Source: Felis catus
Lineage: Eukaryota
Length of the DNA stretch: 64,000 nt
Assembly (NCBI RefSeq): GCF_018350175.1
Contig: NC_058368.1
Location: forward strand, 63,242,001 to 63,306,000
Direction of reading: 5' to 3'
Positions 8,520 to 9,000 of this stretch are shown one piece after another. Each line of letters begins with the position of its first letter. Position 1 is the first letter of the stretch. The notes beneath the pieces are model-generated. The model had not been told where the DNA came from and made no database searches. It saw only the letters and a program-made list of their open reading frames with translations. The position numbers and the translations under genes were made by a program.

Positions 8520-9000
8520 ATGAGGCTTTGTGCCGTTCATAAGACAGAGACATCTTTTGTTAACCTGCCCGTCATTTCTCCGCGAGATTCGCACGGAGCC
8601 TTGCTGAGCAACTACTAAATGACCCTCAGCTGGCGGCTGTGGTAAATGCCGCTGGGAACTTCTGCGCATGCGCAGCACCTTGTCCCATGAGCACCCCCGC
8701 GGGCTCGGCCTGATCTCCGCTTCTGAAAAACTCCTGAAGAGATTGAAAAGGAGGAAGCCAGCCACCGCTGTAAAGGCCAAGACTAAAGAGGGATTTCAGG
8801 GTGAATGGACTGCCCTTCCTCCCAAGTTTTGCTGTTGAGCCCGAGGTCACAGACGCGTCTGAAGGCGCACAGGTGCCCTCCATGCCTGTGATGTGGCTCC
8901 TTACGGAAGAAGGGAGCAGGAGCGTGCCGCCGGATGCCGAAGACCCGCCTGCAGCTCCCCCTGCTCTAGCTACCGAATGGGTAAGAACCACCACGGAGTG
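8520..9000. promoter_or_regulatory. CpG-island-like segment with perfect NRF1 motif TGCGCATGCGCA (8663-8674); candidate promoter
   Basis: Roughly 25-30 CpGs by eye in ~480 bp, in an otherwise CpG-poor window; palindromic NRF1 consensus; partial TCTCGCGAGA-like motif (ctccgcgaga ~8578-8587). Confidence 0.5.

Follow-up and report, generated by a model that had tools for sequence, protein, structure and literature searches.

The closest described counterpart of the locus reported here is PPP1R26P1 in intron 2 of RB1, likewise a 5'-truncated retrocopy with a CpG island in its coding-derived part (Kanber et al., 2013, PMC3839921). According to that account, its island became an imprinted promoter and first exon and intergenic sister copies decayed; the island, which probably owes its CpG richness to inheritance, has been measured as an imprinted DMR and is spliced to the host gene. 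The island described below, in a retrocopy of RPSA, differs in that much of its CpG content was gained and in that it is known from sequence alone.

Promoters in orphan islands are described as common at retrocopies (Carelli et al., 2016, PMC4772013). These share with the RPSA island that the CpG island is untied to another gene and has NRF1-type motifs, but as reported there they lie upstream of the retrocopy and drive it, whereas the RPSA island is the dead coding sequence itself. One review gives 68% of retrocopy-associated islands as methylated (PMC5408686). Low CpG decay together with weak-to-strong substitution bias in a short intergenic island is also known from hypomethylated regions of GC-biased gene conversion (PMC4350167; bioRxiv 10.1101/2023.11.17.567540), which are, in these sources, best documented in PRDM9-less dogs, whereas the cat keeps PRDM9 (PMC4350167). 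Finally, Type Ib antisense retrocopy exons, as described by Baertsch et al. (2008, PMC2584115), obtain an acceptor from reversed purine-rich Glu/Lys codons and include a ribosomal-protein retrocopy. A candidate antisense exon in the RPSA copy resembles them in both respects and differs in that its frame is not conserved and that it has been seen only as sequence. By analogy with these systems (compare PPP1R26P1 in RB1), an orphan CpG island in a retrocopy is of a kind already known.

Here we analyse such an island in 64,000 nucleotides of the cat genome (the window). The island is real and statistically unusual: it was built partly anew in a dead RPSA copy and has undergone reduced methylation decay. 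We regard it as most likely a weak germline-type promoter-like element for non-coding RNA, with a probability of roughly 0.5.

Results

A decayed RPSA retrocopy in an AT-rich window

The window has a GC content of 0.36 and holds 24 SINE pieces, which we take to be carnivore SINEs. Going by the human gene order, the region is presumably about orthologous to 13q31, near MIR17HG/GPC5. Four adjacent SINEs, two per strand, lie at 54862-55790 with 11, 15, 9 and 2 CpGs, so that several are still CpG-rich, and a long (GGAA)n/(GAAA)n microsatellite follows a SINE at 63100-63300. The 3' fragment of a young L1 at 25349-26990 (plus strand) has a poly(A) end and a 437-codon open frame, which by its resemblance we take to be of the ORF2 type; with 12 CpGs it contains the second most CpG-rich non-SINE stretch. 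Rfam gave no match in the window. A crude scan of the window for coding exons yielded 18 candidates and no Pfam match at the curated cut-off, the Pfam scan taking in 14 of the 18 as well as 5 other frames. Within that scan, nothing in the window came out as a coding exon for the island to drive, which we count against a promoter-like reading.

Table 1. Coordinates of the features at the RPSA locus (positions within the window)
Feature	Position	Strand	Details
RPSA processed copy, 5'-truncated	8530..9070	+	coding part about residues 131-295, frameshifted, 8530-9009
Presumed 3' UTR of the RPSA copy	9009 to about 9070	+	inferred from position
CpG island	8534..8995		27 CpGs; clusters at 8560-8720 (13) and 8830-9000 (12)
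Perfect NRF1 palindrome TGCGCATGCGCA, predicted site	8663..8674		core from L-R-M-R codons
Donor-like site TGG/GTAAGA	8978..8986	+	cut 8980/8981; chance frequency
Candidate antisense cassette exon, 222 nt	8512..8733	-	acceptor before 8733, donor after 8512
MAPK1IP1L (MISS) retrocopy, 5'-truncated	9075..9880	+	17-A tail at 9864-9880; Pfam MISS, E 6e-34; named relatives; alignment
Left target-site duplication of the MAPK1IP1L copy	9071..9081	+	partner 9877-9887, 10/11 identical

The initial annotation had described a heavily diverged and frameshifted RPSA copy, and our searches bear this out. Searched with phmmer against the PDB, 8500-9042 matched RPSA in three frames (residues 135-216, E about 0.02; 180-240, E 3e-7; 227-293, E 1e-9). 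A codon- and frameshift-aware alignment runs from about 8530 to a stop near 9009 with several indels; it is gappy across 8530-8620, and weak similarity further 5', back to 8468, may extend it. The reference for this alignment was a consensus of six RPSA-derived proteins, so that the parent is inferred from proteins and not from cat RPSA DNA. About 165 codons are aligned contiguously in 480 bp without introns, as in a processed pseudogene, the parent gene presumably having introns in this part, and the frame is disabled by frameshifts and stops. Changes were found at 84 of 332 codon-fixed sites. The poly(A) is reduced to a 4-A remnant at 9071, a target-site duplication was looked for and not found, and the copy has no excess conservation, its match runs being no longer than chance.

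Scanning for DNA patterns of the parent or orthologues returned 0 loci in viral contigs, 21 loci in metagenome contigs, where no alignment extended past 23 bases, and matches to 3 bacterial records in genome contigs. A protein-based scan of viral sequences and a blastn search of plasmids and phages for the RPSA locus gave nothing. Our literature search, at the level of main texts in a limited library, listed nothing about this locus or about an NRF1 site within the RPSA coding sequence.

A second retrocopy provides an internal control

Directly behind the RPSA copy, less than 100 bp away, lies a MAPK1IP1L copy that is absent from the initial annotation. The 11-mer of its target-site duplication matches the window twice and nowhere else when up to one mismatch is allowed. 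Since the left duplication starts within the A-rich RPSA end, the MAPK1IP1L copy was inserted later, into the RPSA tail. Its lower divergence at non-CpG fixed sites (29/158, 18.4%, vs 52/203, 25.6%, for the RPSA copy) agrees with a later insertion. The younger copy has about 0.2 substitutions per site; set beside a dog-cat distance of 18.3% summed over two branches (PMC4350167), this leads one to expect the locus in the dog as well. A single chimeric RPSA-MAPK1IP1L insertion was also considered and is disfavoured, the second copy having its own target-site duplication. With 6 CpGs in the 416 bp of 9075-9490 (GC 0.555, observed/expected 0.19), the MAPK1IP1L copy decayed normally and is an internal control for the RPSA island.

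The RPSA copy carries a CpG island built partly of new CpGs

Between 8520 and 9000 there are 27 CpGs in 481 bp, at a GC content of about 0.57-0.58 and an observed/expected ratio of about 0.68-0.69; the non-SINE background has 1.9 CpGs per 481 bp and a ratio of 0.13. When the 24 SINE pieces are masked this is the top 481-bp stretch of the window, the next best having 12 CpGs, so that the copy is rightly described as the CpG-dense non-SINE stretch; young SINEs exceed it in density, with 15 CpGs per roughly 215 bp. CpG islands are commonly defined by a length of at least 200 bp, a GC content of at least 50% and an observed/expected ratio of at least 0.6, and the 481 bp have these properties, as do 252 200-bp windows. 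Under the strict definition (at least 500 bp, GC 55%, ratio 0.65), GC content and ratio pass and the CpG span of 8534-8995 falls just under 500 bp. A CpG-poor, purine-rich stretch with 1 CpG (8720-8830) separates the two CpG clusters. The density contrast between the island and the MAPK1IP1L control is significant (p = 0.001).

Many of these CpGs are not legacies of the parent gene. At least 12 of the 27 lie at sites where the parent codons exclude CG, compared with 1 of 6 in the control copy, and because no synonymous parent codon gives CG at these 12 sites, they are gains. At the remaining 15 the parent could have had CG, and these may be inherited or gained. With the parent inferred from proteins, the expectation that the CpGs were not simply inherited is therefore upheld, and the opposite outcome named in the initial annotation, CpGs mostly inherited from the parent, could hold at most barely, at the extreme.

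CpG decay was reduced but not absent

Methylated DNA typically loses CpGs 10-15 times faster than other sites change. We simulated this process by evolving random back-translations of the parent at the non-CpG rates of the locus itself, with a multiplier applied to CpG. The MAPK1IP1L control fits a 10-15x CpG decay and rejects 1x. For the RPSA copy at 10x, 27 or more CpGs came out in no more than 3% of the runs in a set of 300 and 0.2% in a set of 1500, and at 15x in none; even with CpG-rich parents the probability under 10-15x decay is at most 0.03. Taken by themselves, the gains discriminate less well (probability 0.04-0.08 at 10x and 0.02-0.03 at 15x).

The copy also bears marks of methylation. 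Transitions are enriched where the parent could have had CpG (17/95 vs 5/76, p = 0.04), and nine clear deamination scars were found; these scars show that the copy was really methylated at some time in its history. In a joint fit with 900 runs per model, a never-methylated history (at most 0.002) and a constant 10x decay (at most 0.022) both fit poorly. The best fits are a constant 3-5x decay (0.03-0.25) or methylation during the first 30-50% of the history (0.04-0.25); the fit depends on the parental CpG count, and the data do not separate a steady 3-5x from a late escape. The simulations thus favour partial or late hypomethylation over both never- and always-methylated histories. Germline CpG decay was reduced, not absent: the germline hypomethylation proposed by the initial annotation stands to the extent that the simulations reject lifelong full methylation, but the view that the sequence had stayed unmethylated fails on the nine scars and on the poor fit of the never-methylated model.

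The core of a perfect NRF1 palindrome arrived with the coding sequence

The palindrome at 8663-8674 is the sole match in the 64 kb to YGCGCAYGCGCR, which we take to be the NRF1 consensus, also when one mismatch is allowed (0.02 expected), and both of its CpGs are intact. Both are in the arginine codons of L-R-M-R, and the core of the site therefore came with the mRNA. The last base alone has changed, through a G>A in the following Gly codon that carries a deamination scar; a muntjac RPSA-like protein (P0010) has the same Gly>Ser change. The claim of a perfect motif derived from the LRMR codons is accordingly confirmed.

Keeping both arginines despite 25% divergence has a probability of 0.005-0.04 at 10-15x decay and of about 0.39 at 1x. 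Among 11 other RPSA-derived proteins (two more, P0005 and P0007, have no alignment over the motif), the 6 with a local identity of at least 0.93 kept both motif arginines, and the 5 with a local identity of at most 0.87, from gibbon, a bovid cluster, African wild dog and two others, all lack one or both. Beside the site, a GC-box, YY1 or E-box motif, in its usual form, was looked for and not found, a point against the promoter-like reading.

NRF1 has been reported to bind unmethylated motifs only and to be unable, alone, to keep CpG-poor DNA unmethylated (PMC6923324), and high-affinity Nrf1 sites are described as resisting remethylation better than weak ones (PMC7236515). The site would therefore be a contributor and not a sufficient cause, and it is plausible that this predicted site contributes to the hypomethylation of the RPSA island.

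A presumed felid relative

The protein P0001 translates the same locus with TGA taken as W, which marks it as a gene-caller product; the idea that it is a real protein was rejected. It shows 5 visible non-CpG differences in about 326 chances (1.5%), a divergence at which its source is presumably another felid. In P0001, LRMRS and the two donor regions are retained, and there is an indel of one base near 8528. It lost 1 CpG in 39 visible deamination chances, where 2-4 losses would be expected if methylated, a comparison too small to discriminate. Its left flank has CpGs at 8468 and 8490 where the cat genome has CA. This difference within 8460-8530 suggests that the left edge of the island may be eroding in the cat lineage or growing in that of P0001. 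An island that has persisted while its edge shifted would fit the relative, the numbers being small.

Discussion

A promoter-like element or an inert island

Promoter activity of the island is, judged from these sequence features, about an even bet. The alignments indicate that L1-type retroposition delivered the RPSA 3' half, into whose tail the MAPK1IP1L copy later entered, and that the NRF1 core came with the RPSA coding sequence. According to the simulations, CpG decay then ran, in statistical terms, at about a third to half of its normal rate over the life of the copy, either steadily, with methylation in part of the germline cycle, or with methylation first and escape later, and new CpGs accumulated during this reduced decay. 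We infer that NRF1 may bind its high-affinity site in the demethylated germline and, together with neighbouring factors, may help to keep about 500 bp open. Low-level non-coding transcripts would be initiated there, and the splice sites would be incidental. In a weaker further step, the open spot might attract some recombination and thereby add GC-biased gene conversion.

The same mutational history could have been left by a hypomethylated orphan island that is inert, or enhancer-like, and that neither gives a stable transcript nor is under selection. We regard this as possible though rather unlikely. All of the positive evidence is mutational, there is no excess conservation, the donors occur at chance level, and a review sees little sign that CpG density as such is under purifying selection (PMC8286816). 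Against inertness, the NRF1 site is perfect and retained, and orphan islands are described as often being promoters or enhancers (PMC8286816, PMC4772013).

Possible GC-biased gene conversion

Islands produced by biased gene conversion have been described as a class (PMC8286816), and the RPSA island could be one of these: methylated, a temporary recombination hotspot in which gains of G/C and CpG outpaced deamination. Outside CpG-prone sites, the RPSA copy has weak-to-strong changes at 26/127 sites and strong-to-weak changes at 8/76, a GC* of 0.66 (0.77 for 8640-9009). Compared with a background GC* of 0.35-0.45 this bias gives p values of 0.0005-0.019, and under some filters up to 0.08. The MAPK1IP1L control has 8/61 and 16/97 (GC* 0.44); the direct contrast between the copies is not significant (p 0.08-0.27), and it vanishes when CpG-prone sites are included (GC* 0.52 vs 0.48). 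Biased gene conversion in the RPSA copy, as put forward in the initial annotation, thus remains suggestive, with a weak-to-strong bias relative to the local background that does not reach significance against the adjacent copy.

Such a hotspot would also fit the greater divergence of the RPSA copy compared with its neighbour (25.6% vs 18.4%), the deamination scars, the two left-flank CpGs of P0001 where the cat genome has CA, and the intact PRDM9 reported for the cat (PMC4350167). Even so we hold it to be an unlikely sole explanation, because simulations with biased local rates still reject a constant 10-15x decay, both inherited CpGs of the NRF1 motif survive, and the bias stops at the neighbouring copy less than 100 bp away.

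Possible imprinting

A bolder extension of the promoter-like reading would make every RPSA retrocopy a portable promoter seed by virtue of the NRF1 site in its mRNA. The copy studied here would have escaped silencing in one germline only and become a lineage-specific, possibly imprinted promoter near MIR17HG/GPC5. Escape in one germline only would give the intermediate CpG decay that is observed, and this intermediate rate is the only feature compatible with an imprinted DMR of the PPP1R26P1 type. We consider the proposal decidedly doubtful.

Splice sites and transcripts

The initial annotation had placed a donor at each edge of the island. Both are where it put them: a G>A at 8984 has made the plus donor better than the parent's Gly codon would allow, and CAG/GTAATC lies on the minus strand at 8512/8511. 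Such sites are no more frequent than chance, however. GGTAAG occurs 33 times in the window (26.1 +/- 5.2 expected) and CAGGTAA 12 times (9.6 +/- 3.0 expected), and by a rough scoring matrix 121 and 91 GT sites across the window do as well as the two donors, which therefore carry no weight as evidence.

The minus donor also bounds the antisense candidate, the best-scoring of the 18 candidate exons. Its acceptor, among the top 16 of 8700 AG sites, is the reverse of the purine-rich P-E-E-I-E-K-E-E codons, so that an antisense purine-rich acceptor and a donor are present at 8733/8512 as in Type Ib exons; the conserved open frame in a host protein that goes with that type was not found. That the functional unit is this cassette exon, in a minus-strand non-coding transcript starting elsewhere, strikes us as very unlikely. 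Both splice sites are compatible with the P0001 translation, the acceptor is very strong, and retrocopy exons with Lys/Glu-codon acceptors are documented (PMC2584115), but this acceptor simply came along with the RPSA codons, the exon leaves out the 12 of the 27 CpGs found at 8830-9000, and exon use would not explain the CpG gain. A coding role for the exon was rejected: the indel of P0001 near 8528 breaks the antisense open frame, which is therefore not conserved, and the peptide has no Pfam or Atlas match. Antisense RNA of 8512-8790 folds no better than shuffles (z -0.31). On the plus strand, a strong acceptor at 10908 is the first downstream of the plus donor and begins an exon-like stretch with interrupted frames (10908-11480), which has no significant Pfam match. 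Should the island fire on this strand, the stretch could be used as a second exon.

Part or all of 8440-9070 is contained in 20 of the 24 sequencing runs listed: four recorded as RNA (metatranscriptomes, share 0.57-0.90), ten guessed to be RNA from seven studies (share 0.45-0.66, four at 0.48) and six of unrecorded kind (share 1.00). Reading the share of about 0.48 as an exon of about 300-340 nt was dropped, since a DNA fragment from SphI at 8666 to PstI at 8949 gives a similar share. Host DNA can also be present in metatranscriptomes. The partial runs are explained equally well by libraries of restriction-bounded DNA or by host DNA, so these runs have no weight as evidence of expression.

The view that the copy is an ordinary methylated pseudogene with CpGs inherited from a CpG-rich parent is largely refuted and highly improbable: although the parent could have held CG at 15 of the 27 sites, the other 12 cannot be inherited, a parent with about 54 CpGs yields 27 or more with a probability of 0.03 at 10x and in 0/300 runs at 15x, and the neighbouring MAPK1IP1L copy decayed.

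Implications

The locus offers a clean natural experiment on the birth of a CpG island, in which two dead retrocopies adjoin: the one with an inherited transcription-factor site gained CpGs around it, and its neighbour decayed. It raises the question of whether escape from methylation is more frequent among RPSA retrocopies that keep the LRMR-encoded NRF1 site than among those that have lost it. If the island is a promoter, it would be a case of coding sequence turning into regulatory sequence.
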